From assembly GCA_964427405.1 (NCBI GenBank), contig CAYRUB010000001.1, positions 16,534 through 80,533 of the forward strand: a stretch of 64,000 nt of DNA. The letters are read 5' to 3'. The notes under the pieces were generated by a model, which searched no databases, was not told the DNA's origin, and saw only the letters and a program-made list of their open reading frames with translations. The DNA is from an uncultured Planctomycetales bacterium. GTDB lineage: Bacteria > Omnitrophota > Gorgyraeia > Gygaellales > Profunditerraquicolaceae. A program made the translations under genes and the position numbers. Shown in pieces: positions 24,363-45,925 of the stretch (positions within the stretch are counted from its first letter, which is position 1; the number at the start of each line of letters is the position of its first letter).

Positions 24363-25007
24363 CTAGAACTCCATAACTATTTTTGATAAATAATCCGCCA
24401 TTGTTGATTTACTCAAAAAAGGCCCGTATTTATCCGTACCATCTGATATGTAAGCCTGATAAGCCTTATTCGTATTAGAATTGGCAACTACTAAATCCAG
24501 ATTTGCCTGTTTAAGCAGCCTATTGCCTTTTTCAATCAGCATCTTCTTTCCTGCTTCGGGCTCAAATTTGAAACCCACGGTAATTAATCCGGTATCGTAA
24601 TCCTTTAAGTTGTTTATCAATTTCTTCGCAGGAACCAAATTGATTTTCCAATTATCAAGCCGCGAACTAACTTTGTGATGCTTTGTTTTTTCGGGTAGAT
24701 AATCCGCAACTGCCGCGGCATGAATAACCGCTTTGTATTTTCTTTTTTTTAGCTCATCTTTCAAAAGTTGTTCGAGCTCTGAAAAATACTTAAAGTTGAT
24801 TATTCTTACGCCTGAAATCCTCGATGCGCAAAAATCACCCGGGCCAAGCAATAATGTAACCTTGGCGCCAATCCTTTTAAATTTATTCGCCAGTATAAAT
24901 CCGGTCTGGCCGCTTGCGATATTACTGATTACTCTGACCTTATCAATAGGCACCCAGGTAGAACCGGCAGTAATCAGGATATTATTTTTAGTAACCAATT
25001 TCTTCAA
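24363..25007 (-). CDS. coaB: Stand-alone phosphopantothenate-cysteine ligase (CoaB domain)
   Basis: 214 aa; matches the CoaB half of bacterial Dfp (ILITAGSTWVPIDKVRVISNIASGQTGF..VTLLLGP); no CoaC domain. Confidence 0.7.
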   Translation of the reverse strand: MKKLVTKNNILITAGSTWVPIDKVRVISNIASGQTGFILANKFKRIGAKVTLLLGPGDFCASRISGVRIINFKYFSELEQLLKDELKKRKYKAVIHAAAVADYLPEKTKHHKVSSRLDNWKINLVPAKKLINNLKDYDTGLITVGFKFEPEAGKKMLIEKGNRLLKQANLDLVVANSNTNKAYQAYISDGTDKYGPFLSKSTMADYLSKIVMEF

Positions 25008-26055
25008 TTATTGATTTTAAATTTGCGGCCATAACTTTAGGCGGCTTTACTGTTTTAATCGCCCTCTCCGGGTCTTTTAGCCCATGCCCGGTTAATATAC
25101 ACACAATCCTGCATTTTTTATTCTTGAAATAACCCTTTTTGATTAATTTCAACAGGCCGGCAATAGAAGCTGCTGAAGCCGGTTCCGCAAAAACACCTTC
25201 TTTAAGTGCTAGAATTTTATAAGCCTGTAAAATCTCTGTATCCGAAACCATATCAATTAAGCCTTTTGATTCATCGCGTGCTTCTACCGCTGTTTTCCAA
25301 CTTGCCGGGTTACCGATACGTATGGCAGTGGCGATAGTCTCAGGATTTTTAACCGGTTTATTCCTTACAATAGGGGCAGCTCCTTTTGCCTGGAAGCCTA
25401 ACATAACCGGAAGTTTCCCGCTTAACCCTAAAGCTTTATATTGTTTATACCCTTTCCAATAGGCGGTAATATTGCCCGCGTTTCCTACCGGCATGCACTG
25501 AAAATCCGGGGCATCCCCAAGATAGCCGCAGATTTCAAAGCTTGCTGTTTTCTGGCCTTCAATACGGTAAGGATTCAGCGAATTCACCAGTTTTACAGGA
25601 TAATGCTGAGCGATCTCTTTGACTAAATCCAGGGCATCGTCAAAGTTTCCTTTAATCGCCAATACTTTTGCGCCATGAATTAATGCCTGGCTGAGTTTTC
25701 CTAATGCAATTGCTCCACTGGGAATGAGCACAATGCATTTTATTCCGGCACGTGCCGCATAAGCAGCGGCAGAAGCCGAAGTATTCCCGGTAGAAGCGCA
25801 GATGACCGCGCTAGCTTTTTCTTCGCAGGCCTTGGATATTGCTAAAGTCATCCCCCTGTCTTTAAAAGAACCGGTAGGGTTAAGCCCTTCGTATTTTAAA
25901 TAAACTTCCGCTTTCCTGCCAACTAGTTTACTTAGGTAACCGGCATAAATTAATGGAGTATTGCCTTCATTTAAAGTTATCACCGGAGTTTTCTCGGTGA
26001 CAGGCAGTAGTTTTCTGTATCTTTGTATTATCCCTTTATATGCTTTTTCGCTCAC
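24988..26055 (-). CDS. thrC: Threonine synthase
   Basis: 355 aa; PLP lysine motif GSFKDRG. Confidence 0.9.
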   Translation of the reverse strand: MSEKAYKGIIQRYRKLLPVTEKTPVITLNEGNTPLIYAGYLSKLVGRKAEVYLKYEGLNPTGSFKDRGMTLAISKACEEKASAVICASTGNTSASAAAYAARAGIKCIVLIPSGAIALGKLSQALIHGAKVLAIKGNFDDALDLVKEIAQHYPVKLVNSLNPYRIEGQKTASFEICGYLGDAPDFQCMPVGNAGNITAYWKGYKQYKALGLSGKLPVMLGFQAKGAAPIVRNKPVKNPETIATAIRIGNPASWKTAVEARDESKGLIDMVSDTEILQAYKILALKEGVFAEPASAASIAGLLKLIKKGYFKNKKCRIVCILTGHGLKDPERAIKTVKPPKVMAANLKSIIEEIGY

Positions 26056-27350
26056 TAAACACCTTCTATTCTTATGGCTACGGATTTTTCTTTAATATCT
26101 TTTAATTTATCAATCATCTTTAAGGCACCGCGCAGATTTTTTTCTTTTACTTCATGCGTCACCATGACTACCGGGACAACCTGGGATTTTAATCTTTCCT
26201 TTTGGGTGACGGAAGCAATGCTGATACCAAACTTTGCCAGGATTCCGGCTATTTTAGCTAATACGCCGGGTTTATCAACCGCCATAATACGGATATAATA
26301 TTTATTTTCAAACTCGTTGATTTGGCGTAACCCTTTAATCGAACCATCTTCAATAGAGTTAAGGGTGGGCCGGAACAAGCCAGCCTTGATATCCTGGGTC
26401 AGGTCAACGATATCCGAGACAACTGCCGAGGCAGCGGATAACTGCCCTGCTCCCGGGCCGTAAAACATCAGGTCTCCAGCCAAGTCGCTTGAGACATAGA
26501 TAGCATTGAAAACTCCGTCGACTGAAGAAAGCAGGTGTTCAGAAGGCAAGAAAGTAGGATGCACGCGCACCTCTAATTCATCAGCCTCCTTTTTAACGAT
26601 AGCCAATAATTTTATTTTGTATCCTAAATCTTTGGCATAAGCAATATCGGAAGCGGATATTTGTGAAATGCCTTCAATAAAAATGTCCTTTAAGCTGACG
26701 ATCTTGCCGAATGCCAGATAAGTAAGTAATACCAGCTTGTGCGCGGAGTCAATGCCTTCAATATCAAAGGTGGGGTCTTTTTCGGCAAATCCCTTTTCTT
26801 TAGCTGCCTTGATTGCAGAAGCCAAAGAACAATTATCTTTAGACATCCGGGTAAGCACATAATTCGAGGTTCCGTTTACGATACCGAAAATAGAGGTGAA
26901 TTTGTTTGCGACTAAACCCTCTTTTATTGATTTTATAATAGGGATCCCCGCTCCCACAGAAGCCTCAAAATAAATATTTTTCCCCCGTTCATTGGCAACC
27001 GCGAATAGCTCGTTGCCATGCTCGGCAAGCAAGGCTTTATTGGCAGTAACCACATGTTTGCCTTTTTTTAAAGCAGCTAAAATAAATTCTTTAGCCGGGT
27101 TGATACCACCTATTAACTCTACGATGATGTCAATTTGAGGGTCATTGATAATTTCGTTGACATCGCGGCTAAGGCAGTTTTTATCTACGGAAACATCCCT
27201 CTTTAGTGTTAAATCCTTATCGCATATTCTTTTAATCACGATTTCAATACCAATCTTCTGAGCAAGTAAAGATCTCCTCTGCTGCAGGATTTTAACCACT
27301 CCGCAACCAATATTGCCAAAACCAATAAGCCCGACATTAATCTTTCTCAT
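26055..27350 (-). CDS. hom: Homoserine dehydrogenase
   Basis: 431 aa; NAD-binding GFGNIG, catalytic domain, and a C-terminal ACT domain. Confidence 0.9.
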   Translation of the reverse strand: MRKINVGLIGFGNIGCGVVKILQQRRSLLAQKIGIEIVIKRICDKDLTLKRDVSVDKNCLSRDVNEIINDPQIDIIVELIGGINPAKEFILAALKKGKHVVTANKALLAEHGNELFAVANERGKNIYFEASVGAGIPIIKSIKEGLVANKFTSIFGIVNGTSNYVLTRMSKDNCSLASAIKAAKEKGFAEKDPTFDIEGIDSAHKLVLLTYLAFGKIVSLKDIFIEGISQISASDIAYAKDLGYKIKLLAIVKKEADELEVRVHPTFLPSEHLLSSVDGVFNAIYVSSDLAGDLMFYGPGAGQLSAASAVVSDIVDLTQDIKAGLFRPTLNSIEDGSIKGLRQINEFENKYYIRIMAVDKPGVLAKIAGILAKFGISIASVTQKERLKSQVVPVVMVTHEVKEKNLRGALKMIDKLKDIKEKSVAIRIEGV

Positions 27351-27353
27351 AAA

Positions 27354-27713
27354 TTACCCTTTCTTGCTCTTTATGTAATAGCCTACCGTATCACCAATTA
27401 CCCTGCGATGCCTTTCGTCGATCGCCAAAAAAACCAGCCGCGTGTCATAAATTACATCTTTACTAATCTCTTTTGATTCCAGTACCTTGCCAATAAGCAT
27501 AATTGAATTAGGGTCAAAAGGCAGGCGGATCTCAAGAGCTAAATTAGTACCAGGCGTAAAAGGACAGTTAGTGGTAAGCAGCATTCCGCCTAAGCTTAAG
27601 TTTTTAGTTTGCGTTATATCATTATTGCCATTATTCTCCATGACTCTATAGGAAACAATAAAGCGACCATCCGCACGGGGATTTTTTCTTTTTTCCGGGC
27701 CTGAGTAGCTCAT
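27354..27713 (-). CDS. PilZ-domain protein (c-di-GMP binding)
   Basis: 119 aa; RKNPR ... NLSLGGML motifs. Confidence 0.6.
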   Translation of the reverse strand: MSYSGPEKRKNPRADGRFIVSYRVMENNGNNDITQTKNLSLGGMLLTTNCPFTPGTNLALEIRLPFDPNSIMLIGKVLESKEISKDVIYDTRLVFLAIDERHRRVIGDTVGYYIKSKKG

Positions 27714-28472
27714 TTACGCATCCTCCTTTTTAGGTCTATCTGGATCATTCTTAATAAGCCATTCAACGTAATCGCAAAGTAACTTGCTCTCTTCATCCTT
27801 TAGGTCAATAAATTCCACACGGGTAAGGAATGTTCCGGTTGCGGTTTCCAAGTTTGCCAATTTTAACGCGCTGGATTCTATAACCCTGCCGCGGATACGC
27901 AGAGGCTCATAAGGATGCGAAGGCAATTTTATCATAAAATCAATTTTATCCGCGCAGGCATAGCTGGAAGTAAAAACCATTCCCGTTTTACTAAGATTTC
28001 TGACCGTAGTAATATCCCATTTTTCTACTACGCCGAGATAGTTTTGTATGCCATAACTGACTATTAGACTTTTATATATACGTTCTGCTTTTCTCTTATC
28101 ATTATTCGAAGATACCGGGTTCCCGGAAGATTTTTGGCTTAAGAACCAGGTAACATAATCTCTTATGAGATTTATCTGCGCATCGCTAATAGAAGTAAAC
28201 TTTAAGCGTGTTAAAAAAGTTTTGCCTATATAGGGGCGCGAATCAACCACGCTGCCCTTGGTTTCCATCCAATTGTACGGATCAAGAGGAATTTTAAACA
28301 TTAGCAGTATAATTTCACCTGTCTGGAATTGCTTATTTGTGTCAAACGATATCCCTGATTCGCTTACATCTTTAATAAAAGAAACATTCCAGTTATCTTT
28401 ACTGCCTATCTCCGGAGAATACCTGACCGTCAGGGGTTTTACTATGCGTACGGATTTTCTTTTCTCTTCCAT
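27714..28472 (-). CDS. Tandem PilZ-domain protein
   Basis: 252 aa; two RxxxR/DxSxxG pairs (KRKSVRI...DVSESGISF and KRKAERI...NLSKTGMVF). Confidence 0.7.
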   Translation of the reverse strand: MEEKRKSVRIVKPLTVRYSPEIGSKDNWNVSFIKDVSESGISFDTNKQFQTGEIILLMFKIPLDPYNWMETKGSVVDSRPYIGKTFLTRLKFTSISDAQINLIRDYVTWFLSQKSSGNPVSSNNDKRKAERIYKSLIVSYGIQNYLGVVEKWDITTVRNLSKTGMVFTSSYACADKIDFMIKLPSHPYEPLRIRGRVIESSALKLANLETATGTFLTRVEFIDLKDEESKLLCDYVEWLIKNDPDRPKKEDA

Positions 28473-28510: not shown

Positions 28511-28565
28511 AATTCGACCAAAGACTTATGTCGCTGTCGTTCCGTAAGTCGTGGTCTCATTTAAG

Positions 28566-28639
28566 TCGGGGCGACAGGACTTGAACCTGTGACCTCAGCG
28601 TCCCGAACGCTGCGCTCTACCAAACTGAGCCACGCCCCG
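28566..28639 (-). tRNA. tRNA-Pro (anticodon CGG)
   Basis: Manual fold: 7-bp acceptor CGGGGCG/CGCCCCG, D-arm GCTCAGTTTGGTAGAGC, anticodon loop TTCGGGA, T-loop GGTTCAAGTCC. Confidence 0.85.
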
Positions 28640-28648
28640 TATTACCAA

Positions 28649-29668
28649 CTACTCTTCTTTACTTTTTCTCGTCATTAAATCTTTTACCACCTGACGAGGG
28701 GATTTATTTAAATAAATCAACCGATATACCTCTCTTGTTATTGGCATATCTACTTTATATTTCAAGCTTAAAGCATGAGCGGATTTTGCGGTAGAAACCC
28801 CTTCCGCAACCATCTGCATATTTCTGCAAATTTGTTTTAAGGTCTTACCTTTACCAATCTGTTCTCCCACGAATCGATTACGGCTTTGCCTGCTTATACA
28901 GGTTGTAACCAGGTCTCCTAATCCGCTGATTCCGCTAAAAGTTTCTAATTTCGCCCCCATAGCTTTTCCCAGCCTTGATATCTCTGCAAGCCCGCGGGAC
29001 AGGATAGCCGCTTTAGTATTGGTACCAAACCCTAACCCATCAGATACGCCACAGGCAATGGCAATTACGTTTTTTAGGCTGCCTCCCAATTCCACTCCTA
29101 TAACATCAGGATTAGTATACACCCTGAATCTTTCAGTACTAAATACTTCCTGTATGGTTTTACGTATCCTTATATCGTGTGATGCGGCCACTATAGTAGT
29201 AGGTATGCCTTTAGCTACCTCTTGAGCAATGGTCGGACCGGATAATACAGCAAATTTTACCGGACCAAGTGTTGCGTGAATAATTTCAGAGATCCTCTTG
29301 GAAGAGCCCATCTCTATTCCCTTGGTGACGCTTAGAAAGACAGTTTCTTTGGAGAAACTACCTTTAATTTTCTTTAATACTCCTCTTGTATATTGAGCAG
29401 GAATAGCTAAAACTACTATCTCTTTATCGGTAACCGCAGTTTTGATATTGCTGGTTATCTGAATATCTTTTGGAATCTTGATCCCCGGCAAGAATTTGGA
29501 ATTAAGCCGGGTTTTAACCATTAGTTTAGTATAATTTTCAAAAGCGCCCCAAAGCGTAACCGGATAACTTTTAGTAGAAAGCAGGACTGCCAGAGTTGTA
29601 CCCCAACCGCCATCGCCTAATACCGCTATACGCAATTTATTCATGATTAGCCTTAAAGTCCCTTTCAA
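28649..29668 (-). CDS. gpsA: NAD(P)H-dependent glycerol-3-phosphate dehydrogenase
   Basis: 339 aa; IAVLGDGGWGTTLA Rossmann motif; the likely true start is the internal MNKLRIAV. Confidence 0.9.
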   Translation of the reverse strand: MKGTLRLIMNKLRIAVLGDGGWGTTLAVLLSTKSYPVTLWGAFENYTKLMVKTRLNSKFLPGIKIPKDIQITSNIKTAVTDKEIVVLAIPAQYTRGVLKKIKGSFSKETVFLSVTKGIEMGSSKRISEIIHATLGPVKFAVLSGPTIAQEVAKGIPTTIVAASHDIRIRKTIQEVFSTERFRVYTNPDVIGVELGGSLKNVIAIACGVSDGLGFGTNTKAAILSRGLAEISRLGKAMGAKLETFSGISGLGDLVTTCISRQSRNRFVGEQIGKGKTLKQICRNMQMVAEGVSTAKSAHALSLKYKVDMPITREVYRLIYLNKSPRQVVKDLMTRKSKEE

Positions 29669-30047
29669 AGAAATAAGTCTGAGGATAAATGTTACCGAAA
29701 TTTTTTTCCTCTCTCGTTATAAACCTTACTCCAATGTTATAGGTTCCGACCTCCTCCGGCTCAACCCTGGTAACATTTCCGATTATCCCATTTTGATAAA
29801 TAAGCACTCGTTTCTCCAGCTCTCTGCAAAAATCCAATGTGGCGCGGTCGAAAGAAAGCCATAACACATCATCCGGGCTTACCTTTTCACGAATGCTGCA
29901 GGATATCCCGGACTGGCTGATATTTACGGAGTATCCGGCACAAAGCTTAGAAATAGTCTCTTTATTGCAAATCTTAAAACCCAAAGGCGCGGAATATTCT
30001 AATCGCGTAAATGAGCGCCGTTCATCTTGAGCGTAGTTATTATCCAT
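29637..30047 (-). CDS. PilZ-domain protein
   Basis: 136 aa; ERRSFTR ... NISQSGI motifs. Confidence 0.6.
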   Translation of the reverse strand: MDNNYAQDERRSFTRLEYSAPLGFKICNKETISKLCAGYSVNISQSGISCSIREKVSPDDVLWLSFDRATLDFCRELEKRVLIYQNGIIGNVTRVEPEEVGTYNIGVRFITREEKNFGNIYPQTYFFERDFKANHE

Positions 30048-30797
30048 TTATTTTATAACCAAATTATTTTTGTTTGTTCTTAACTTTGCCAGGTCCCAGG
30101 CGTAATCATAAAGATGCAGCCCCTTGCTTACCGCTATGATCTCTCCGTCTTCTACGCCAATCTCCTCCGCCATATACTGTTTTACCAACTGTAATCCTCC
30201 CAGGTTTGAGGGAAAACCTCCCCAAAGATCCCAGGATCGGAAATAAAGAATAAAATGTAATTTTCCATAACGCAGCCGCGTGTCAATCAACCTTAAGCAG
30301 GGTGGATCAACTAATTTTATATCGGAAGGCATACCGATTTCCATGACCGCCTGGTTAGTTCCCGGCCCCTTTTCCCTGTACATCTTAATTACTTCTTCTA
30401 TTTGATTAACGTTTAACGGCATTTCACAGGTTAAGTCTTTGCCATTTATGTTTTGCTTGATTCTAACCTTTGGATCAACCAACCTTTCTCCATAGGTGTA
30501 ATCTTCGGTTTCTGTCTTTGCCCCGGTAAGCAGGTAGCTTAAATAACCCTGTATATAATCCATATCCGTTGGAGCTGGTATACTCATTCCTTCCGGTATA
30601 ATCGGTATTATCTGATGGGCCGGCTTACGTACTCTTACTGTAACAAAATCAAACTCCAGGCGCTTCTGGCCTTCATAACTGCCGCGGGTAATTGTATACG
30701 CATGGCCTTTATCCAGTATTGCCGACAGACACTGGAACCAGGCATCGTCCAGGTCAAAGGCATCTATATGTACAGGTTTTAAGAATTCTTCGCTCAT
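30048..30797 (-). CDS. Thymidylate synthase-fold protein, short archaeal-like form (ThyA / dNMP hydroxymethylase family)
   Basis: 249 aa. PPCLRL is comparable to the PCH catalytic-Cys motif, YFRSWDLWGGFPSNLGGLQLV to [21 protein letters not shown], and GEIIAVSKGLHLYDY to GEFIH..GDAHIY. Confidence 0.6.
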   Translation of the reverse strand: MSEEFLKPVHIDAFDLDDAWFQCLSAILDKGHAYTITRGSYEGQKRLEFDFVTVRVRKPAHQIIPIIPEGMSIPAPTDMDYIQGYLSYLLTGAKTETEDYTYGERLVDPKVRIKQNINGKDLTCEMPLNVNQIEEVIKMYREKGPGTNQAVMEIGMPSDIKLVDPPCLRLIDTRLRYGKLHFILYFRSWDLWGGFPSNLGGLQLVKQYMAEEIGVEDGEIIAVSKGLHLYDYAWDLAKLRTNKNNLVIK

Positions 30798-31192
30798 TCT
30801 ACAGGTTCTTCCCCGTTTTTAGCATTTTTTGTGAATTGTTTAAAAGTGGTTATAATCTGTGCCACGGGCATATTCTTTCCAATATATCCGGAACATCCAA
30901 ATTCCTTTGACTTGCTTATCAGGTCTTCATTGTAACCAAAACCGGTAATCATAATTACCGGAAGGCTTTTATTGCTATCCCGGATATTTTTAAGCACCTC
31001 TAACCCGCTTATCCCGGGAAGTTTAATATCCAGAAGCACGACATCAAAGGTATCTTTTTTAAACTGCTCCAGAGCTTCTTCACCTGTGCTGCAAATAGAC
31101 ACCTTACAATCCTCTCTTTTTAGTAAATCATTTAAGAGGTCTCTTACCGGTGCTTCATCATCAACTACTAAGACTTTATAAAGCATATGCAC
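30794..31192 (-). CDS. Single-domain response regulator (CheY-like receiver)
   Basis: 132 aa; VLVVDDE ... LLDIKLPGISG ... the motif containing the phospho-acceptor Asp. Confidence 0.85.
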   Translation of the reverse strand: MHMLYKVLVVDDEAPVRDLLNDLLKREDCKVSICSTGEEALEQFKKDTFDVVLLDIKLPGISGLEVLKNIRDSNKSLPVIMITGFGYNEDLISKSKEFGCSGYIGKNMPVAQIITTFKQFTKNAKNGEEPVE

Positions 31193-31201
31193 TCCTCTTT
31201 T

Positions 31202-32659
31202 TTAAATAAAAGGTAGCTTAATAGTAAACGTCGAACCCTTGCCAACCTGGCTTTCTAATTCTATTGAGCCGTTATGGTTTTTAATAATATTATGGCAAAT
31301 TGATAATCCCAGCCCCTTGCCGTCATTTTTAGTCGAGAAAAATGGCATAAAAACATCTTTTAGGCAATCTGCAGGTATGCCCATTCCGGTATCTTTAATC
31401 TGGATAAGCGCAAAAAGATTCCCAAAGCTGCTTGTGGTAATTTTAATTACTCCGCCTTCAGGCATGGATTGATAAGCATTTATTATCAGGTTCAAGAATA
31501 CCTCCTGCAATTGATGCAGGTCTCCTTTTACCGGCCGCATATCCTTTTCAAAATTCTTTTTTATCTCTACTTTAACATCAGGCAAATTATTATATTGGGC
31601 AAACGGCAGAATAAATTCGATGGCTTCATTTACAACTACCGGACCAAAAGCAGGTTTTGTTTTTTGAGAAAATTTCAAGATCCTGTCTACCAATTTTTGA
31701 ATACGTTCAGCCTGGGAATTAATCAGATCGAGGTCATTTTTAACCTTCTGGCTGAGCCTTTCCTTTTTTAATAAAGCTGAGCGGCCGGAAATAACCAAAA
31801 GAGGATTATTAATCTCATGGGCCATACCCGCCGAGAGAAGGCCAAGGGCTGATAATTTCTCAGCCTGGAACGCCTGGTATTCAAGTTTTTTTCTTTCCGT
31901 GATATCTTTTGCGATAAAAATATAGCCTGAATGTTTGCCTTCTGAATCTAAAAACTTATTCGCAGTTAAAATAACCGGGATAGCCTCGCCGGTTTTGGTA
32001 ATTAATGTTGTCTCTTTCTCGTATTTTCCAAATAAGCGCACTTGTTCTAAAACAAAATTCAAATTATTGCCGGTATCTCCGGCATTATGCAGAATATTGA
32101 CGTGCTTAAAGATAATATCCTTTTTATTCCAGCCGAGCATAATTTCTGAACCCATGCCAAAATAAGTTATGTTGCCCTCTAGATTAATTACGTATAGGGC
32201 ATATTCTTTAAGGCTAGAGAGGATATTTTTAAGTGTTTGATCAATGCTTTTCGCAGAATTACCCGCTTCTCTGATTTTTGTAATATCATGCCCGATTAAT
32301 ATGCTGCCCCCGGTTTGATTACCTTCAATCATTATAGGAGTAAGGTTCCAGGAAATAAGCCGTTCACTCTTTTCGCTATCTAAAACCACTCCTTCAAAAT
32401 CCTTTTCTCTCTTATGCCTCGTGCATTCATCTAAGACTGCTTTAAACATATCCTGCTTAATAATATTATTATTACCGTGGAATAAAACTTTTAGCCAATT
32501 AGCGCCAATAATATCTCCATGCTTAAGGCCAGTGATTTTCTCGGTTTTCTTATTGCAAAAAACAATATTTTCGTTAACGTCCAAATAAATTATTATTACC
32601 CCGGCATTATCCAGGAGGTCATGTAATATCTCTTTGGTTTCTTTAATAGCCAAGACCAT
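31202..32659 (-). CDS. Cytoplasmic PAS-PAS sensor histidine kinase
   Basis: 485 aa; two PAS-like regions, then HisKA (AGMAHEINNPL) and HATPase (GTGMGI...GKGLGLSI); no TM segments. Confidence 0.85.
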   Translation of the reverse strand: MVLAIKETKEILHDLLDNAGVIIIYLDVNENIVFCNKKTEKITGLKHGDIIGANWLKVLFHGNNNIIKQDMFKAVLDECTRHKREKDFEGVVLDSEKSERLISWNLTPIMIEGNQTGGSILIGHDITKIREAGNSAKSIDQTLKNILSSLKEYALYVINLEGNITYFGMGSEIMLGWNKKDIIFKHVNILHNAGDTGNNLNFVLEQVRLFGKYEKETTLITKTGEAIPVILTANKFLDSEGKHSGYIFIAKDITERKKLEYQAFQAEKLSALGLLSAGMAHEINNPLLVISGRSALLKKERLSQKVKNDLDLINSQAERIQKLVDRILKFSQKTKPAFGPVVVNEAIEFILPFAQYNNLPDVKVEIKKNFEKDMRPVKGDLHQLQEVFLNLIINAYQSMPEGGVIKITTSSFGNLFALIQIKDTGMGIPADCLKDVFMPFFSTKNDGKGLGLSICHNIIKNHNGSIELESQVGKGSTFTIKLPFI

Positions 32660-32682: not shown

Positions 32683-32753
32683 AGCGGGAGAGGGGAATCG
32701 AACCCCCATATATAGCTTGGAAGGCTATTGTTCTACCACTGAACTACTCCCGC
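32683..32753 (-). tRNA. tRNA-Gly (anticodon TCC)
   Basis: Manual fold: GCGGGAG acceptor, anticodon loop CTTCCAA, T-loop GGTTCGATTCC. Confidence 0.85.
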
Positions 32754-32769
32754 AAATTATTTTATTTCA

Positions 32770-32832
32770 TTCTGCGGGAGTATCCCGCGCATAGCCTTTT
32801 TCCTTAATATTTCCGCGGGAGTATCCCGCGTA
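32770..32832. repeat. Two copies of the palindromic hairpin GCGGGAGTATCCCGCG in the tRNA-Gly/tRNA-Tyr spacer
   Basis: Direct repeat of a 16-nt self-complementary unit (GCGGGA-GTA-TCCCGC). The first copy is followed by CCTTTTTCC on the top strand. The stem sequence is the same as the tRNA-Gly 5' end. Confidence 0.6.
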
Positions 32833-32848
32833 GAAGTTGTTATTAAAA

Positions 32849-32934
32849 TGGTGGGCAGGAAAGGATTCGAACCTTTGAAGCACAGGTGCAACAGATTTAC
32901 AGTCTGTCCCCTTTGGCCACTTGGGTACCTGCCC
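32849..32934 (-). tRNA. tRNA-Tyr (anticodon GTA), long variable arm, CCA encoded
   Basis: Manual fold: GGGCAGG acceptor, anticodon loop TGTAAAT, long variable arm, T-loop GGTTCGAATCC, 3' ACCA. Confidence 0.85.
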
Positions 32935-32947
32935 ATCACAAAATAAA

Positions 32948-33020
32948 AGCCGGCGAGAGGAATTGAACCCCCGACCCATTGTTTACAAAACAATTGCTCT
33001 ACCAACTGAGCTACGCCGGC
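32948..33020 (-). tRNA. tRNA-Thr (anticodon TGT)
   Basis: Manual fold: GCCGGCG acceptor, D-arm AGCTCAGTTGGTAGAGC, anticodon loop TTTGTAA, T-loop GGTTCAATTCC. Confidence 0.85.
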
Positions 33021-33021
33021 A

Positions 33022-33876
33022 TCAGCTACTTATTTTTAACGCATTAGGGATCTGATCAATAATATCGGATGCGATTAGCCCCATTTGTGTTTTTTCTTTT
33101 GCTGCTAAATCTCCGGCTAAGCCGTGAATATATGTTGCGTATTTGGCAGCCTTAAAACCATCTAACCCCTGAGCCAGAAATGCCCCTACAATTCCGCTTA
33201 GCACATCTCCGCTACCGGCAGTTGCCATTCCGGGGTTTCCCGAACGGTTAGTATAAAATCCTTTTAACCCATCGGTTACAATACTATTGTGCCCTTTAAG
33301 GATAATTATACTATTATAATGTTTTGCGTACTTTTTCGCAATCAATTTCCTATTATTCTTTACAACATCAATACTTATATCAAAGAGCCTGGAGATCTCT
33401 TTTTGGTGCGGTGTCAGGATAAGTTTCCCCTTATGCGCTTTAAGTATTTCCAAACAATTATTAAGAGCATTAAGCGCATCGGCGTCTACAACCTTTGGCT
33501 GATTTGTTTTACGCATAATCTTTTTCACTAACGCGTAAGTTGATTTATTCCTACCAAGTCCTGGGCCGATAATTAAAACATCAATATTTTTAAGTAAAAC
33601 AGATATTTTAGCAAACGCCGCTAAACTCAAAGTCCCTTCTTTAGTTTCCGGCAAAGGAAAGGTAATCAACTCTTTTGGTTTGACTCTAATTAACGCCAAA
33701 TTAATACTTTTGGGTATACCCAGTGTTACTAATCCGGCTCCCGAACGTAAAGCTGCCTCAGCGCAAAGCAAGGCTGCTCCAGAAAACCTGCTTGAGCCGG
33801 CTAAAATCAGTATCTGCCCGTAATCTCCCTTATGAGAATCAGCTTTTCTGTGTAATAACTGCGCTGGCAACCGCAT
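33022..33876 (-). CDS. nnrD: ADP-dependent NAD(P)H-hydrate dehydratase (Nnr C-terminal/YjeF_C domain only)
   Basis: 284 aa carbohydrate-kinase-fold protein (GPGLG, GSGDVLSG). Confidence 0.8.
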   Translation of the reverse strand: MRLPAQLLHRKADSHKGDYGQILILAGSSRFSGAALLCAEAALRSGAGLVTLGIPKSINLALIRVKPKELITFPLPETKEGTLSLAAFAKISVLLKNIDVLIIGPGLGRNKSTYALVKKIMRKTNQPKVVDADALNALNNCLEILKAHKGKLILTPHQKEISRLFDISIDVVKNNRKLIAKKYAKHYNSIIILKGHNSIVTDGLKGFYTNRSGNPGMATAGSGDVLSGIVGAFLAQGLDGFKAAKYATYIHGLAGDLAAKEKTQMGLIASDIIDQIPNALKISS

Positions 33877-34198
33877 AGGTTTTTACATGCGAGATTGAAA
33901 TAAATACGTTAATATGTTTGCCCTTACCGTTTAGAAACGAACATACAGGTTTACCTGCAGAATCATTATTTATCTGAATATCCTGCCAGGAAAGAGAACT
34001 ATCCCCTGCCGCTTTAAAAACCGCTTCTTTAGCGGCAAACCTGCCGGCTAAATGCTGATAAAAAGAATTCCTGGTCTTGGCGTTTTTAAGTTCGGAATCA
34101 GTAAAAACACGACGTAAAAAATCATCTCCCCACTTTTCTATCGCCGCGCGGATACGCCGTACCTCAGTTATATCTACTCCAGTTCCTATAAACATCAT
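33839..34198 (-). CDS. acpS: Holo-[acyl-carrier-protein] synthase
   Basis: 119 aa; GVDITEV ... AGRFAAKEA. Confidence 0.85.
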   Translation of the reverse strand: MMFIGTGVDITEVRRIRAAIEKWGDDFLRRVFTDSELKNAKTRNSFYQHLAGRFAAKEAVFKAAGDSSLSWQDIQINNDSAGKPVCSFLNGKGKHINVFISISHVKTYAVASAVITQKS

Positions 34199-34908
34199 TT
34201 GATTAACTGGTACATTTCCCTAACCGCCTTATATAAGCCTACGTATAGCGCCTTACAAATAATGGAATAACCAATATTAAGTTCTTCTATGCCGTCAAGC
34301 GTAGCAATGGGCTTGACATTAGCATAATCAAGCCCATGTCCGGCATTGACGGCTAACCCTTGAAGCCTTGCGTAATTTACAGCACGCTGCAGTTCATTAA
34401 ATGATTCCTTTTTTTGCTTAATGCTTTTAGCGTCAGCGTAACGGCCGGTATGCAGTTCAATGATCCCTGCGCCAATTTTACCGGCAGAATCAATTTGTTT
34501 TTTATCCGGATCAATAAACAAGCTTACCTTGATCCCTGATTTTTTTAACTTAAGCAGGCTTGCGGAAATTCTCTTTAAATTATCCGCAACGTTTAATCCT
34601 CCTTCAGTAGTCAACTCTTTCCTGCGTTCGGGTACCAATGTGGCCTGATAAGGTTTTATTTTACAGGCAATATTTACGATCTCTGGCGCGATCGACATTT
34701 CAAGATTAAGTTTGGTTTTGATATTCTCGCGCAGGCGTTTAATATCACCATCCTGAATATGCCTGCGGTCTTCTCTTAAATGCGCCACTATACTATCGGC
34801 ACCCGCCTCTTCGCACAAGAATGCAGCATAAACAGGATCAGGCAGATTTCCCCGGCGTGCCTGTCGCAATGTCGCTACGTGGTCAATATTTACACCTAGT
34901 TTAGGCAT
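34195..34908 (-). CDS. pdxJ: Pyridoxine 5'-phosphate synthase
   Basis: 237 aa; LGVNIDHVATLRQAR N-terminus. Confidence 0.9.
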   Translation of the reverse strand: MPKLGVNIDHVATLRQARRGNLPDPVYAAFLCEEAGADSIVAHLREDRRHIQDGDIKRLRENIKTKLNLEMSIAPEIVNIACKIKPYQATLVPERRKELTTEGGLNVADNLKRISASLLKLKKSGIKVSLFIDPDKKQIDSAGKIGAGIIELHTGRYADAKSIKQKKESFNELQRAVNYARLQGLAVNAGHGLDYANVKPIATLDGIEELNIGYSIICKALYVGLYKAVREMYQLIK

Positions 34909-35038: not shown

Positions 35039-35800
35039 TTATTCATCTTTTTTTGTCTTAATTAACTCTTCTATTCTTGATTCTAACTCTGCCCCGCCTA
35101 AATCTTTATAAAATTTCTTGCGGTAGATAATGGATATATCACGCCTTTCCTCGGAAACTACAATTAGGATAGCGTCGGTTTCTTCACTCAAACTTAAAGC
35201 CGCGCGATGACGGGTTCCGAAAACCCGGTTTAGTTCCTGGTTTATGGCAAGCGGAAAAATACATCCTGCCGCAACGATCCTGCCATGATGAATAATCAAG
35301 CCGCCGTCATGAAGGGGATTATTAGGGGTAAAAATCGCTTGAATTAAATCCGCCGAAACACGTGAATCTATAGTCTCTCCGCTTTGGATATACGCTGCTA
35401 AAGAATCATTTTTTTCGATGGCAATTAATCCGCCAAGTTTGTTCGCCGCCAAGTTTTCACAACCCTCTACAATTTGTTTAACAAATGCATAGGGCTCTTC
35501 ATCTTTCAGCATATTTCTAAAGATATTGCGTTTGCCTAACTGAGCCAATCCCTGCCTGATCTCCGGATGGAAAATAATCAATATTGCGATAACCGATATC
35601 CCGAAAAGCTTTTTAAGCAACCAATCCAAAACGATAAAATCAAATTTCTGGGAAATAAAAAAAACAAACAGGAGCATAATTATCCCGCGTAAAACCTGCA
35701 GGCTACGGGTGCCTTCAAAGAAAAGTATGATATGGTAGATAAAAAACCATAAGATAATGACTTCAGTTACGGGTTTCCAGTATAAAAATAGATTATGCAT
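35039..35800 (-). CDS. cdaA: Diadenylate cyclase CdaA (membrane-anchored DAC domain)
   Basis: 253 aa; N-terminal TM helices; DAC motifs (DGA...HDGGLIIHHGRIVAAG, GTRHRAA). Confidence 0.85.
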   Translation of the reverse strand: MHNLFLYWKPVTEVIILWFFIYHIILFFEGTRSLQVLRGIIMLLFVFFISQKFDFIVLDWLLKKLFGISVIAILIIFHPEIRQGLAQLGKRNIFRNMLKDEEPYAFVKQIVEGCENLAANKLGGLIAIEKNDSLAAYIQSGETIDSRVSADLIQAIFTPNNPLHDGGLIIHHGRIVAAGCIFPLAINQELNRVFGTRHRAALSLSEETDAILIVVSEERRDISIIYRKKFYKDLGGAELESRIEELIKTKKDE

Positions 35801-37004
35801 TAGTATTGTTCCTTATGGCAGCCGCCATTTTAAGGGCCTGGCTTACTTCCTTTACATCATGCACACGCACTATATTTGCCCCGCGTTCAACAGCCATTAC
35901 ACAGGTCGCCAGCGTGCCGATAGACCTTTCCTGGAGCCCTGTTTTTAAAACTTTGCCAATAAATGATTTCCGGCAAGGGCCTATAAGTATAGGTTTTCCT
36001 AAGATTTTAAAATCAGCCAGCCTTTTTATAATTTCAAGATTTTGTTCAGGTTTCTTGCCAAATCCAATTCCAGGATCCACAATTATTTTATCAGGGCTTA
36101 TGCCGGAGAATTCAGCGGACTCAATAGCATTCTTTAACCAAGAAGATATATCGCCTATCAAAGATTTATAGGCTATCCTTTTCTGCATATTCACCGGCCT
36201 GCCGAGCATATGCATAATAACCACTACGGCCTTATGCTTAGCAACTACCTTAGCCATGCGTTTATCCCCTAAGCCGGAAATATCATTAACGATTTGCGCG
36301 CCGGATTCAAGGCAAACCTGGGCTACCTCTGCTTTAGTAGTATCAATAGAAATAGGCGCGGGTATATTCTTTGCCAGCTTTTTTAGTATCGGCAAGACAC
36401 GCCGCAGCTCTTCCCTAATGCTGATATTTCTGGCGCCAGGCCGGCTGGATTCTCCTCCTAAATCAATTATATCTGCGCCGTCCTTTAGCATTTCTTCTGC
36501 CCTGTTTAAAGCCAAGCCGGGATAATCGTTGCTTTTAATGCTATACAGACCATCTCCACTGAATGAATCCGGGGTTAAATTCATAGCACCCATAATATAA
36601 GTTTTAGCGTTGAAATTTAAGAAACCTCTTCTCAGGGGCATAGTAAAATTACCTCTGGTGTATTTCTTGATATTTTTATCCAGTTCATCTGCCAGTTTTT
36701 GCAGGCCAAATGGCTGAAGTTTTAATTTATTAATAAGAGAAAAAAGTTGATTAGATTGGCCGATAATGAGGCAGTCGGTTTTCCTGGTTTTACCGGTAAG
36801 CGCCCCCCGGGCTACCGCAACATCACCGCCTAAAGAAAGCATTTCTTGCTTTAAGATATTGGCGGCGATATTAGATATTGCGCTTAAGTGGATTAAGAAA
36901 GTAGTGGTCTTAGGCAGCATAATTTTGATCCCGCAGGGATCAACGCCAATATCACGCATAATCTTTTCTACTTCATTCTTACCGCTAAAACTAAAAATAC
37001 GCAT
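35793..37004 (-). CDS. folP: Dihydropteroate synthase with an unusual N-terminal extension of about 120 aa
   Basis: 403 aa. The pterin-binding DHPS barrel starts near residue 128 (IMGAMNLTPDSFSGDG) and the N-terminal 120 aa are extra. Conserved ftsH-folP-cdaA order. Confidence 0.85.
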   Translation of the reverse strand: MRIFSFSGKNEVEKIMRDIGVDPCGIKIMLPKTTTFLIHLSAISNIAANILKQEMLSLGGDVAVARGALTGKTRKTDCLIIGQSNQLFSLINKLKLQPFGLQKLADELDKNIKKYTRGNFTMPLRRGFLNFNAKTYIMGAMNLTPDSFSGDGLYSIKSNDYPGLALNRAEEMLKDGADIIDLGGESSRPGARNISIREELRRVLPILKKLAKNIPAPISIDTTKAEVAQVCLESGAQIVNDISGLGDKRMAKVVAKHKAVVVIMHMLGRPVNMQKRIAYKSLIGDISSWLKNAIESAEFSGISPDKIIVDPGIGFGKKPEQNLEIIKRLADFKILGKPILIGPCRKSFIGKVLKTGLQERSIGTLATCVMAVERGANIVRVHDVKEVSQALKMAAAIRNNTNA

Positions 37005-41495: not shown

Positions 41496-42284
41496 CTACT
41501 TTTTCCTGTAAGCTTCTAAATACGAGTCGCAGTAAATATTCTTGTTTAAAATAAGCTCTGCGGTAATTAATGTATCAATGAGCTCCTTATCTTTAGGGTC
41601 AAGTATAGCAGAATCCAGCCCATATGCAACTGCCATAGTTAAAAAGGTGCGATTAATCAGGCTGCGCAGATGAGACCCCTGAGAAACATTACTTAATCCC
41701 AGGATAGTTTTAGGTTCAGGTTCAGAAATAATTTTAAATTCAGCAATAGACTCTAAAATATCCTTCATCTGCGCCTGAGCAACATTAACCGGCAAAACTA
41801 TTGGGTCTAAGTATAGATCTTCGATAGAAAAACCTTTTTCCTGGCAATTTGCCACAATAGTTGCCGCTAGCTCCAGGCGCTGATCTTTATTTTGCGGGAT
41901 TCCTTTTACGCTGATAGTAATCCCGATCAATTTAGATTTATACTGCTTAGCTAAAGGAATAAGCGCATCCAGTTTTTCTTCATCGGCAGTAGTAGAATTA
42001 ATAATTGTTTTGCTCCTGGCAACCTTTAATCCCTCTTCAATTACCGCGGGCTTACTTGAATCCAAGCAAAGAGGTTTGTCGGTAACCTCCTGGATTGTTT
42101 CAACCAGCCATGGCATATCAACTAACGGTTGTCTGGAAGCCGGCCCGCAATTAACATCTAAAGCATCCGCCCCGCAGGCGAGCTGATCCAAAGCGCTTTT
42201 CTGTATCTCCTTCTTATTGCGTTCCTTAATTGCCGCGCCTATATTAGCGTACATGCCGTTAATCAACTCACCGATAATAAACAT
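41496..42284 (-). CDS. acsE: Methyltetrahydrofolate:corrinoid/iron-sulfur protein methyltransferase (AcsE-like pterin-binding TIM barrel)
   Basis: 262 aa pterin-binding domain (LDVNCGPAS...). Confidence 0.75.
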   Translation of the reverse strand: MFIIGELINGMYANIGAAIKERNKKEIQKSALDQLACGADALDVNCGPASRQPLVDMPWLVETIQEVTDKPLCLDSSKPAVIEEGLKVARSKTIINSTTADEEKLDALIPLAKQYKSKLIGITISVKGIPQNKDQRLELAATIVANCQEKGFSIEDLYLDPIVLPVNVAQAQMKDILESIAEFKIISEPEPKTILGLSNVSQGSHLRSLINRTFLTMAVAYGLDSAILDPKDKELIDTLITAELILNKNIYCDSYLEAYRKK

Positions 42285-42309
42285 AATATATTCCTTTTTA
42301 ACCTTTATA

Positions 42310-43245
42310 CTATTTCTTAAAAAGAGTATCTATATACTTAGTAACTTTTTCAGCTGCAGCAGGATGACGCATAACTAAAAGGTCAGTCCCTGATTGTATA
42401 AGGCTGGTAGCTGTAATTATCTCCCAGGTAACACCTTGTTCGAGACTGGTTTTAGCCTCTTTTGTCCTCCAGGTCTCCTGGCCTACGAAACAAATAAACG
42501 GGGAAGCTAATGTTTTATCCCCCGATAAAGCGGCAAGCCTGGCTCTTTCCATAATGGAATAAGCATATTCAAGCCCATAACCTAAAGCCCCGATGGTTGG
42601 ATTGATTACAATCCGCTCAAGGCTTAAACCCATATCCGAGATTAGTATGTTTAATTGTTTTGCGATATTGATATCTATAGGGCTTTCGGCGATAATATTG
42701 TGGCCATCCGCCAATACGCTGGCAACCAAAGTTTTATAATTATCCTGGACCGCGCAGCCAATCAGGCAACGTTCTCCCTTAGCCGCCTCAGAGCAAGCAG
42801 GTAAAATCAGGTTATCTTTGGCATCATCGCCGCTTCCTATAATTATTAAAGGTACTTTTATCCTGGTTAAAAGCGTTGAAATAAATTTTGCTGCCTCCTT
42901 AGGACCATTATTGCCAAAATCCGGGTGTGTCCCCTGCATTCTTACGCAAAGTAATTGCGCCTTAAATTCATTTACACATTTATCGGCCCAGGCAAATGGG
43001 TCATTTAAAACTTTACCGTAAGGCAAAACCAGTTCTTCAGGCCAATCAAGCGGCGGGGTATCCCATATCTCAAAGGCAATGGCAGGCCGATTAGGGATAC
43101 TTCCTTCTTTAAATAACAATGGCAGGCTGCTCTGGCCTCCGATTCTTACCGTATTAATACGAGAACCGCCATCTTCTTTAGTTGCTCCGATAGTTAGGGC
43201 AGAAATTACACCTGCCCATTTTTCAAGCACTAATTGTGTTTCCAT
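42310..43245 (-). CDS. acsD: Corrinoid iron-sulfur protein small (delta) subunit, CdhD/AcsD
   Basis: 311 aa TIM-barrel CFeSP small-subunit family. Confidence 0.75.
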   Translation of the reverse strand: METQLVLEKWAGVISALTIGATKEDGGSRINTVRIGGQSSLPLLFKEGSIPNRPAIAFEIWDTPPLDWPEELVLPYGKVLNDPFAWADKCVNEFKAQLLCVRMQGTHPDFGNNGPKEAAKFISTLLTRIKVPLIIIGSGDDAKDNLILPACSEAAKGERCLIGCAVQDNYKTLVASVLADGHNIIAESPIDINIAKQLNILISDMGLSLERIVINPTIGALGYGLEYAYSIMERARLAALSGDKTLASPFICFVGQETWRTKEAKTSLEQGVTWEIITATSLIQSGTDLLVMRHPAAAEKVTKYIDTLFKK

Positions 43246-43982
43246 ATTTTATCTCCCAGGCAATTAAGCGCCGTCAATATCGGCGCATCTTTATTTAAAC
43301 TAAAAACTGAACCTCCGTTTAAACTTAACTCTTCAATTAACGCATCTTGCGGCAGGCTGCCAAGATACTCAAGGCCAGTTTCTTTAATTGTTTCAATTTT
43401 CACTTGCTGGCTAAAACGATTTATTAAAATGTACCTTTTTTTTACTTCAAATTTTAGCTGTAATGCCAGATCATTGATTCTTTGGGCTGATTTCAATCCC
43501 ACCCTGGTAGCATCTGAAACAACGATAAGTATATCAGCAAGACGGCTAGTGCGCCGGGATAAATGTTCCAATCCCGCTTCATTATCAATAACTATATAAT
43601 CATAATCTTTGATTAATTTGGCCATAACCGCTCTCAAAACGTTATTTACATAACAATAGCAACCCGGACCTTCGGGTTTACCCATACTCAAAATATCAAA
43701 TCCATCCTCTTCCTGGATAGCTGACTGCACCTGGTATCCTATAAAACGCTCTTTCGTCATCCCGGCAGGAACCATATCCGGATTTGCAGATATGTCATCT
43801 AAAATTTCCCCTATATTACGTCCAGGCTTCAAACCCAAAACCTCACCCAGGTTACTATTAGGATCAGCGTCTATGGCTAAAAGCGAACCGATTTTCTTTT
43901 CTTTGATATTGCGGATAATTAAAGATGCGATTGTAGTCTTGCCGGTACCCCCTTTTCCAGCCATTGCGATAATATAGCCCAT
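43230..43982 (-). CDS. cooC: CooC/AcsF-type Ni-insertion ATPase (MinD/ParA family)
   Basis: 250 aa; deviant Walker A AGKGGTGKTT. Confidence 0.85.
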   Translation of the reverse strand: MGYIIAMAGKGGTGKTTIASLIIRNIKEKKIGSLLAIDADPNSNLGEVLGLKPGRNIGEILDDISANPDMVPAGMTKERFIGYQVQSAIQEEDGFDILSMGKPEGPGCYCYVNNVLRAVMAKLIKDYDYIVIDNEAGLEHLSRRTSRLADILIVVSDATRVGLKSAQRINDLALQLKFEVKKRYILINRFSQQVKIETIKETGLEYLGSLPQDALIEELSLNGGSVFSLNKDAPILTALNCLGDKIWKHN

Positions 43983-45908: not shown

Positions 45909-45925
45909 AGATTAGAGAACCATGA

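Follow-up and report, generated by a model that had tools for sequence, protein, structure and literature searches.

Thymidylate synthesis is essential and a drug target, and the only well characterised enzyme types for it are ThyA and ThyX. Archaeal-type ThyA enzymes have had no biochemical follow-up, according to a review (PMC9931769). In the thymidylate synthase (TS) superfamily, a few positions (numbered throughout as in Escherichia coli ThyA) are diagnostic: Cys146 is catalytic; position 177 is Asn where the substrate is deoxyuridine monophosphate (dUMP) and Asp where it is deoxycytidine monophosphate (dCMP); position 169 is Asp in folate enzymes and Asn in 5-hydroxy-dCMP synthases; and position 143 is Leu in methylases and Asp or Glu in hydroxymethylases (PMC13326640). 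We analysed a 64,000-nucleotide (nt) stretch of the Omnitrophota contig CAYRUB010000001.1 (the window), in which a gene for a 249-amino-acid (aa) TS-fold protein stands among genes for a PAS histidine kinase, a stand-alone receiver and PilZ proteins. An earlier note on this DNA had framed the cluster as an unusual pairing of a pyrimidine-modifying enzyme with two-component and cyclic di-GMP (c-di-GMP) signalling. As framed, the finding is mostly ordinary; of more interest is the enzyme's clade, which is uncurated. Judged from sequence, the protein is probably a housekeeping thymidylate synthase of this short clade, encoded in a housekeeping string of genes with repeatedly gained and lost signalling genes.

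The short thymidylate synthase-fold clade

The window protein belongs to the TS/dCMP hydroxymethylase superfamily by both score and fold: PF00303 covers its C-terminal half with 42.2 bits (cutoff 24.3), and its AlphaFold model (pLDDT 93.4) has the TS fold and matches the ThyA, MilA and dCMP hydroxymethylase structures. Comparison gave values of 23.7 for 9iqc (flavin-dependent dCMP hydroxylase), 22.1 for MilA (cytidine monophosphate [CMP] hydroxymethylase), 19.6 for ThyA and 17.8 for T4 dCMP hydroxymethylase, and Foldseek searches of PDB and BFVD returned generic TS matches only, with no discrimination among them. The best NCBIfam match is TIGR03283 (methanogen-type ThyA) at 98.7 bits (E 3.1e-28), short of the curated cutoff of 174.55, which the control PhiF1 ORF59 from a Methanobacterium virus passes with 187.1 bits. 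In hhalign comparisons, this methanogen-type protein aligns with a score of 138 over 185 columns (probability 99.4), the phage proteins (CP-51 gp100 and one from an Agathobaculum phage) with 106 over 102-109 columns, and E. coli ThyA with 81 over 106 columns, the phage and E. coli alignments being restricted to the C-terminal half. Profile similarity to CP-51 gp100 is thus lower than to the methanogen type, to which the clade is, by sequence alignment, closest and full-length. The earlier note's description of the protein as short and divergent is borne out by these values; of the searches that it proposed, the structural one returns the TS fold and the profile one has methanogen-type ThyA as best match, though not as a clear orthologue.

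The clade is separate and very large: clustering of database proteins at 90% leaves more than 7,000 members, and the FRSWD motif occurs in at least 598 GTDB species. An exhaustive search of representatives found 1523 clusters (50% identity) with E<1e-3, 173 of which had E<1e-30. Members occur in Omnitrophota, Desulfobacterota, anammox Planctomycetota, Endomicrobia and hundreds of uncultured phages. Named ones (from Poribacteria, Desulfobacterales, Firestonebacteria and other bacteria) are all labelled 'thymidylate synthase', a database name given by homology only. The clade fails every curated model, and two residue sets regarded as important for the mechanism are changed in it. Our literature searches on archaeal-type TS in bacteria, MJ0757, Velamenicoccus and TS in Omnitrophota found nothing specific.

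Among the 150 best representative clusters, 23 exceed 400 aa; of four that were read, three carry inteins and one is a tandem duplication. The inteins (P0124, P0130, P0133) interrupt three conserved sites, namely before the catalytic Cys (DPP/C), in FR/SWD and in EDY/TYGER; the duplicated protein, P0131, consists of two tandem TS-like domains.

Alignments by phmmer, hhalign and MAFFT place Cys167, Arg187-Ser188, Asp190, Asn198 and His228/Tyr230 of the window protein at Cys146, Arg166-Ser167, Asp169, Asn177 and His207/Tyr209. Across 72 diverse members of the clade, these residues, which make up the ThyA catalytic set, either never vary or are conserved to at least 90%. All 351 sequences checked agree at positions 169 and 177, and 305 of them have the combination D/L/F/W/D/N at positions 143/147/165/168/169/177.

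TIGR03283 enzymes, as exemplified by PhiF1 ORF59, resemble the window protein in being short (approximately 200-250 aa) without a C-terminal ThyA tail, in carrying N-terminal DAW and YTYG[DE]R motifs, in having equivalents of Cys146, Arg166, Ser167, Asp169, Asn177, His207 and Tyr209, and in having Leu at 147 and an acidic residue at 143. They differ in that Arg126-Arg127 is kept there and is Asn-Gln in the window clade, and in that His at 168 is replaced by Trp in the window clade. The latter is also bacterial or phage-borne, in folate- rather than methanopterin-using organisms, and its Omnitrophota form has a specific beta-hairpin insert of 22 residues (residues 107-128 of the window protein). 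Canonical ThyA (E. coli, Lactobacillus casei, human) shares the fold (template modelling score approximately 0.65-0.70), the catalytic Cys and the RSxD...N...H.Y motif set. Its sequence, however, is alignable in the C-terminal half only, at approximately 17-20% identity; the window protein lacks about 45 C-terminal residues and shows the changes Trp80 to Tyr, Leu143 to Asp, His147 to Leu, Gln165 to Phe, Cys168 to Trp and Arg126-Arg127 to Asn-Gln. The phage and other C5-modifying homologues (T4 dCMP hydroxymethylase, MilA, 9iqc, CP-51 gp100) are alike in the acidic residue at 143 and Gln at 127. In contrast to them, the window protein has Asn rather than Asp at 177, which points to uracil and not cytosine as the substrate, and Asp at 169 rather than the Asn that is the signature of the flavin-dependent hydroxylase (PMC13326640); similarity to the window clade is limited to the C-terminal half, and the window gene lies in a cellular housekeeping context without modification genes.

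Two identities were rejected on these residues. A dCMP or CMP hydroxymethylase (T4 gp42, MilA) requires Asp where the window protein has Asn198, and Asn is found there in all 351 readable sequences. A flavin-dependent 5-hydroxy-dCMP synthase (RB69 gp48, 9iqc) requires Asn at 169, where Asp190 stands, and the window protein again has Asn and not Asp at 177.

Neither a ThyX motif nor a canonical ThyA nor a FolA-like dihydrofolate reductase (DHFR) was found in the window or in 168 fetched loci (6-10 kb around the gene), among them 88 cellular ones. The window does carry folP and Wood-Ljungdahl genes, and the cell is therefore expected to use folates. The Wood-Ljungdahl set (41496-47257, minus strand) comprises an AcsE-like pterin-binding methyltransferase, CdhD/AcsD, a CooC-type ATPase, a RACo corrinoid activator and an AcsC-like protein with CdhD and Fe-S domains.

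Clade members are also encoded on 205 IMG/VR contigs, at 43-63% identity. The phage genes usually lie in replication modules, with neighbours that resemble, from their translations, DNA polymerase, RecA, sliding clamp, ribonucleotide reductase, QueE and a protein like tRNA-guanine transglycosylase (TGT). At about 20 IMG/VR loci (e.g. L133:790-9500), the TS gene stands beside genes for a QueE-like radical-SAM protein, a TGT/DpdA-like protein and a DNA polymerase fused to a domain like family-4 uracil-DNA glycosylase (motifs read by eye), which suggests that these loci are candidate 7-deazaguanine DNA modification modules.

Gene layout and gene order in relatives

All genes of the locus lie on the minus strand and are listed below in order of transcription (domain calls from Pfam, family calls from NCBIfam, transfer RNAs [tRNAs] from ARAGORN and Rfam, junctions read from the sequence).

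33022..34908 (-): nnrD-like carbohydrate kinase (33022-33876), acpS and pdxJ; conserved housekeeping genes upstream of the tRNA cluster, from synteny
32683..33020 (-): tRNA-Thr(UGU), tRNA-Tyr(GUA) and tRNA-Gly(UCC) cluster, the upstream edge of the variable slot (ARAGORN, Rfam)
31202..32659 (-): histidine kinase, 485 aa, PAS-PAS-HisKA-HATPase_c (Pfam)
30794..31186 (-): single-domain response regulator, REC only, 130 aa from an ATG preceded by AGGAG (Pfam)
30048..30797 (-): short TS-fold enzyme, 249 aa (PF00303; TIGR03283 below cutoff; AlphaFold)
29637..30047 (-): PilZ protein, 136 aa, RSFTR at 11 and NISQSG at 42 (Pfam)
28649..29644 (-): gpsA, NAD(P)H-dependent glycerol-3-phosphate dehydrogenase (NCBIfam NF000942, 424 bits)
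28565..28639 (-): tRNA-Pro(CGG) (ARAGORN)
27714..28472 (-): tandem PilZ protein, 252 aa, both domains with RxxxR and [D/N]xSxxG (Pfam)
27354..27713 (-): PilZ protein, 119 aa, directly upstream of hom (Pfam)
24988..27350 (-): hom (26055-27350) and thrC (24988-26055), which continue the block as conserved housekeeping genes (Pfam annotation of the identical contig)

Every open reading frame (ORF) that the earlier note assigned to the cluster was found at its coordinates and on the minus strand, and the tight packing is confirmed by the junctions. The kinase starts 23 nt after tRNA-Gly, a spacer of approximately 15 nt with AGGAG inside separates kinase and receiver, the receiver stop and TS start overlap by 4 base pairs (bp; ATGA), TS and PilZ abut with no spacer (TAA then ATG), and PilZ and gpsA overlap by 8 bp. 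Coupling by 4-bp overlaps, claimed for the whole series, thus applies to the receiver and TS genes and to none of the other junctions. The further PilZ genes begin past gpsA and tRNA-Pro, 1.16 kb from the first PilZ gene and not 1.5 kb as had been given. With gaps of no more than 15 nt between them, the genes probably share a single transcript. The minus strand holds approximately 50 of the 54 large ORFs of the window, with frequent overlaps; since nearly the whole window is co-oriented and many ORFs overlap, orientation and tight spacing argue only weakly for a dedicated operon. An Rfam scan of 26.5-34.5 kb returned tRNAs only and neither a c-di-GMP nor a tetrahydrofolate riboswitch, and promoter and terminator counts are at chance level. 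Searches with the window's own proteins as queries found no kinase, receiver or PilZ matches in the 64 kb beyond the kinase, the receiver and the three PilZ genes, so their local concentration is real.

The kinase was described in the earlier note as a cytoplasmic double-PAS protein, and so it proves: it has two PAS domains, HisKA (53.8 bits), HATPase_c (82.1 bits) and an HEINNP H-box at residue 281, and its hydropathy profile (maximum KD19 1.24) shows no hydrophobic segment. The receiver (REC, 96.8 bits) has its acidic pocket and phospho-acceptor Asp in DD at 9-10 and LLD at 51-53; by sequence both are two-component proteins. No output domain is found in the receiver and no DNA-binding protein in the cluster (Pfam). 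The nearest solved relatives of the receiver are TrrA (3a0u/3a0r, 1e-18) and Spo0F, and the arrangement is like that of ThkA/TrrA of Thermotoga maritima and of Spo0F-type systems in that a soluble PAS kinase gene adjoins a stand-alone receiver gene; it is unlike them in the two PAS domains of the kinase and in encoding no phosphotransferase or output regulator nearby.

All four PilZ domains match PF07238 and carry RxxxR and [D/N]xSxxG, approximately 30 residues apart, which makes the PilZ proteins, by motif, canonical predicted c-di-GMP binders. Orthologues of the TS-adjacent protein keep [D/N]xSxxG in 37 of 37 cases and RxxxR in 36. A comparison with solved PilZ structures gave no sequence match at E up to 1. 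The window genes resemble those for single-domain PilZ receptors in family and motifs, but they are neither fused to nor beside motility, secretion or polysaccharide genes and are instead interleaved with thyA, gpsA and hom. Small PilZ genes have been reported scattered beside other loci in Omnitrophota (bioRxiv 10.1101/2023.11.21.568195).

Identical or near-identical proteins carry the name Candidatus Omnitrophota. The nearest GTDB species is UBA6253 (GCA_002441245.1; 94% TS identity), which a published taxonomy places in Velamenicoccia, Gygaellales (GIF10), Profunditerraquicolaceae (PMC10066038). Orthologues of every window gene were located in 80 species-level loci from GTDB genomes and, in addition, in metagenome contigs. 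TS followed by gpsA is kept in 45 of the 80 species, within the order pdxJ-acpS-nnrD-tRNAs-TS-gpsA-(PilZ)-hom-thrC, and in this clade gpsA is conserved as the gene downstream of TS. A PilZ gene lies between TS and gpsA in 35 of the 45 syntenic species and is absent from 10; in eight species TS abuts gpsA directly. Further PilZ genes occur between gpsA and hom in most syntenic species, and a PilZ gene directly upstream of hom is conserved in most syntenic loci; the tandem form is confined to the closest relatives, and others have a single-domain PilZ in the same place.

The kinase-receiver pair is present in 13 and clearly absent in approximately 23 of about 36 assessable syntenic loci. All four combinations of presence and absence of the pair and of PilZ are seen, including the pair without PilZ (L013, L014, L016) and PilZ without the pair (L006, L020). 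The pair occupies a hypervariable slot adjoining the tRNA cluster: the interval from nnrD and the tRNAs to TS ranges from 253 to 7189 bp, and it may contain only tRNAs, this pair, a LAGLIDADG-like ORF, a membrane protein or other cargo. The L049 slot holds an unrelated 1499-aa kinase with three receivers, and L044 is similar (two or three receivers across both). From translations read without a family scan, one slot (L031:5567-9515) seems to contain an AAA/OLD-type ATPase pair and a zeta-toxin-like kinase, and another (L041:9548-9823) a GIY-YIG protein. Such proteins suggest that defence or mobile elements integrate preferentially in the slot between the tRNAs and TS.

The remaining 35 species, from Omnitrophota, Planctomycetota/Brocadiia and Endomicrobia, are more distant; in them TS stands in unrelated housekeeping surroundings, and none of the window's kinase, receiver or PilZ neighbours occurs. 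Examples are tmk-holB-x-TS-aspS in an endomicrobial locus (L088; translations read, tmk confirmed by phmmer) and TS-guaA-purL in another member of Omnitrophota (L072; translations read). In two Desulfobacterota contigs, looked up separately, dnaN-gyrB precedes TS. Downstream of dnaN-gyrB-TS in Desulfobacterota we noted a 430-aa HATPase_c-only protein (L089:6677-7969) and, on the P0322 contig, a REC-STAS protein; this recurrence of signalling genes beside the clade is possibly due to chance.

TS is the slowest-evolving gene of the block, with a median score ratio of 0.84 (thrC 0.75, hom 0.71, gpsA 0.65, and approximately 0.5 for kinase, receiver and PilZ). The earlier note's view of a TS enzyme functionally embedded in a two-component and c-di-GMP cluster is not upheld, given the many loci in which the pair or PilZ is absent and the other contexts in the 35 distant species; its proposed check of gene order came out against it, since relatives carry the TS gene elsewhere without kinase and PilZ neighbours. 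The signalling neighbourhood has the look of gene shuffling particular to this lineage at a hot spot next to tRNA genes and is of local interest only.

The tRNA cluster itself varies. ARAGORN does not call tRNA-Tyr(GUA) between tRNA-Thr and tRNA-Gly in several related species (L023, L019, L020, L053). In L023 (8547-9825), a group I intron splits tRNA-Tyr in the anticodon loop (Rfam RF00028, 93.6 bits, cutoff 50), and immediately upstream is an ORF of approximately 230 aa, with an apparent helix-turn-helix (HTH) and LAGLIDADG-type domain, that extends into the tRNA's 5' half. The tRNA-Tyr of the window (32849-32934) is intact. Between it and tRNA-Gly (approximately 32765-32835, minus strand), the spacer contains two copies, about 30 nt apart, of a palindrome-like element, CGCGGGATACTCCCGC(G/A).

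Chemistry of the enzyme and role of its neighbours

The housekeeping thymidylate synthase that we favour would be part of a clade of short ThyA enzymes whose sister is the methanogen type. Cys167 would attack dUMP, Asn198 would select uracil and Asp190 would bind the pterin or folate one-carbon donor, in a host that is predicted to make folate and to run a folate-dependent Wood-Ljungdahl pathway. The thyA gene would be vertically inherited in the string pdxJ-acpS-nnrD-tRNAs-thyA-gpsA-hom-thrC, with the PAS kinase and its REC-only partner in the hypervariable slot between the tRNA cluster and thyA, and with small PilZ c-di-GMP receptors presumably inserted among housekeeping genes in this Omnitrophota family (Velamenicoccia, Gygaellales). 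The signalling genes, whose gains and losses do not follow thyA, would form a separate signalling module: a cytoplasmic cue sensed through PAS would lead to autophosphorylation and phosphotransfer to the Spo0F/TrrA-like receiver, acting through protein contacts, while the PilZ proteins would bind c-di-GMP. This module would share the expression context of thyA rather than serve as its dedicated regulator.

Several observations weigh against this reading, and some of them favour an enzyme that modifies C5 otherwise. Asp164 occupies the position of Leu143, where ThyA has a bulky hydrophobic residue with a proposed role in water exclusion, and Asn148-Gln149 replaces Arg126-Arg127, the dUMP-phosphate clamp contributed by the partner subunit; the Asn-Gln pair is found in 316 of the 328 sequences in which the motif was located. 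The window protein is below the curated cutoff of every TS model, and none of the 72 diverse members reaches that of TIGR03283 (best E 1.2e-31). CP-51 gp100, a probable phage dUMP hydroxymethylase, scores nearly as high on TIGR03283 (84.7 bits), for which reason a sub-threshold match does not decide the chemistry, and we dropped it as proof of archaeal ThyA orthology. A FolA-like DHFR is missing from the surrounding 6-10 kb in all 168 loci, and thyX (K03465) without K00560 is listed for at least two Omnitrophota genomes, one of them GCA_023819605.1 of the order B26-G9, in a published supplement (PMC10066038). In eight related phage contigs (L098, L101, L105, L135, L137, L140, L168 and L169; TS-like gene at approximately 6000-6800 in each), the gene lies between two family 4 glycosyltransferases (GT4; PF00534), one of which also passes the cutoff of PF20706 ('GT4-conflict'), and these TS genes are identical to the window protein at sixteen reliably aligned active-site positions. 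The same contigs carry GT9 and GT2 transferases, a methyltransferase and a GFO/IDH/MocA oxidoreductase, and the cluster follows primase, single-stranded DNA-binding protein and RuvC-like genes (translations read) and a PD-(D/E)XK nuclease (Pfam); by analogy, it may be a DNA base hypermodification cluster. IMG/VR UViG_3300027901_000907 and UViG_3300014913_000759 belong to this phage lineage.

It is mainly this phage layout that keeps alive the idea of a dUMP C5-hydroxymethylase or related C5 modifier, in which water and not a folate hydride would resolve the exocyclic methylene intermediate and a modified pyrimidine nucleotide would be made for cells and phages. The residue pattern expected of it (Asn177 with an acidic 143, as in SPO1 gp29 and CP-51 gp100) is present, Asp being the residue at 143 in most of the clade; the window protein equals CP-51 gp100 at the four diagnostic positions 143, 146, 169 and 177, and phage CP-51 is one that we take to have hydroxymethyluracil DNA. 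Its TNQAV motif is closer to TRQAV, found in phage hydroxymethylase-like proteins, than to SRRIIV, found in ThyA, no DHFR gene lies nearby, and the short C-terminus lacks the tail that in ThyA closes the active site. Yet the same pattern occurs in methanogen-type ThyA: because PhiF1 ORF59, a true TIGR03283 member that keeps Arg126-Arg127, has Glu at 143, the Leu143 rule does not decide the chemistry of short TS enzymes, and Asp at 143, which we had considered as strong evidence for a hydroxymethylase, is weakened. The best alignment of the clade, which spans its full length, is with the methanogen-type family; the clade is vertically inherited, extremely conserved and found in housekeeping or replication contexts in several phyla; and its cellular loci lack an accompanying deoxynucleoside monophosphate kinase, glycosyltransferase or other modification gene. 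Since a single related lineage accounts for all eight phage contigs, they amount to one observation, and their transferases could act on other targets. We know of no bacterium with genome-wide 5-hydroxymethyluracil. We thus consider a C5-hydroxymethylase unlikely; of the earlier note's suggestion of a dUMP or dCMP hydroxymethylase, the dCMP half falls with Asn198, and the dUMP half retains its residue pattern (Asp164 at 143) as an improbable identity. The related proposal that the clade does not carry out the classical ThyA reaction, either hydroxymethylating dUMP or making deoxythymidine monophosphate without oxidising folate, and that in this Omnitrophota family it would be co-expressed with the PAS kinase, receiver and c-di-GMP receptors, is conceivable because of Asp at 143, Asn-Gln in place of Arg126-Arg127, the missing C-terminal lid and the lack of a nearby DHFR; we regard it as very doubtful.

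A different objection to a housekeeping enzyme with incidental neighbours is that in all 13 kinase-bearing species the pair lies within 20 nt of TS, often overlapping, so that co-expression is conserved wherever the pair is present. This would fit a real module in which the PAS kinase and receiver, together with c-di-GMP-loaded PilZ, tune ThyA (DNA precursor), GpsA (membrane lipid precursor) and possibly Hom, coupling growth or the cell cycle to a signal. Such a module would also account for the PilZ gene between TS and gpsA in most syntenic species with its conserved motifs, for the additional PilZ genes between gpsA and hom, for the different kinase with two or three receivers in the same position in L044 and L049, for the HATPase_c and REC-STAS proteins near the TS homologue in Desulfobacterota, and for the confinement of the window's detected kinase, receiver and PilZ genes to this locus. 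However, the pair and PilZ are each dispensable in many close relatives and occur in all combinations, the tRNA-adjacent slot also accepts unrelated cargo, and in the 35 more distant species these neighbours are all missing. The receiver lacks an output domain, the cluster encodes no DNA-binding protein, the signalling genes evolve at an accessory-gene pace, small PilZ genes are scattered beside other Omnitrophota loci, and the whole window is co-oriented and tightly packed. A dedicated module therefore seems to us a poor prospect: the kinase, receiver and PilZ genes probably do not make up a dedicated system, and we saw no comparative evidence for specific regulation of thyA or gpsA by the signalling genes.

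If the clade consists of ordinary ThyA enzymes, then the Arg126-Arg127 clamp and Leu143 are dispensable, and the Leu143 rule for predicting phage DNA hypermodification needs refining. If it does not, many anaerobes and their phages make a different product.

Other features of the window

Two further minus-strand loci of the window may be mentioned. At 35039-37004, a cyclic di-AMP synthase gene (DAC domain, cdaA-like) overlaps the end of the 403-aa folP, which has an N-terminal extension. With this DAC synthase and the PilZ genes, two cyclic-dinucleotide systems are therefore encoded within 8 kb. At 48253-48756, a 167-aa protein consists of a bactofilin domain fused to a C-terminal HTH_17 DNA-binding domain, and its gene adjoins that of an MgtC-family protein.

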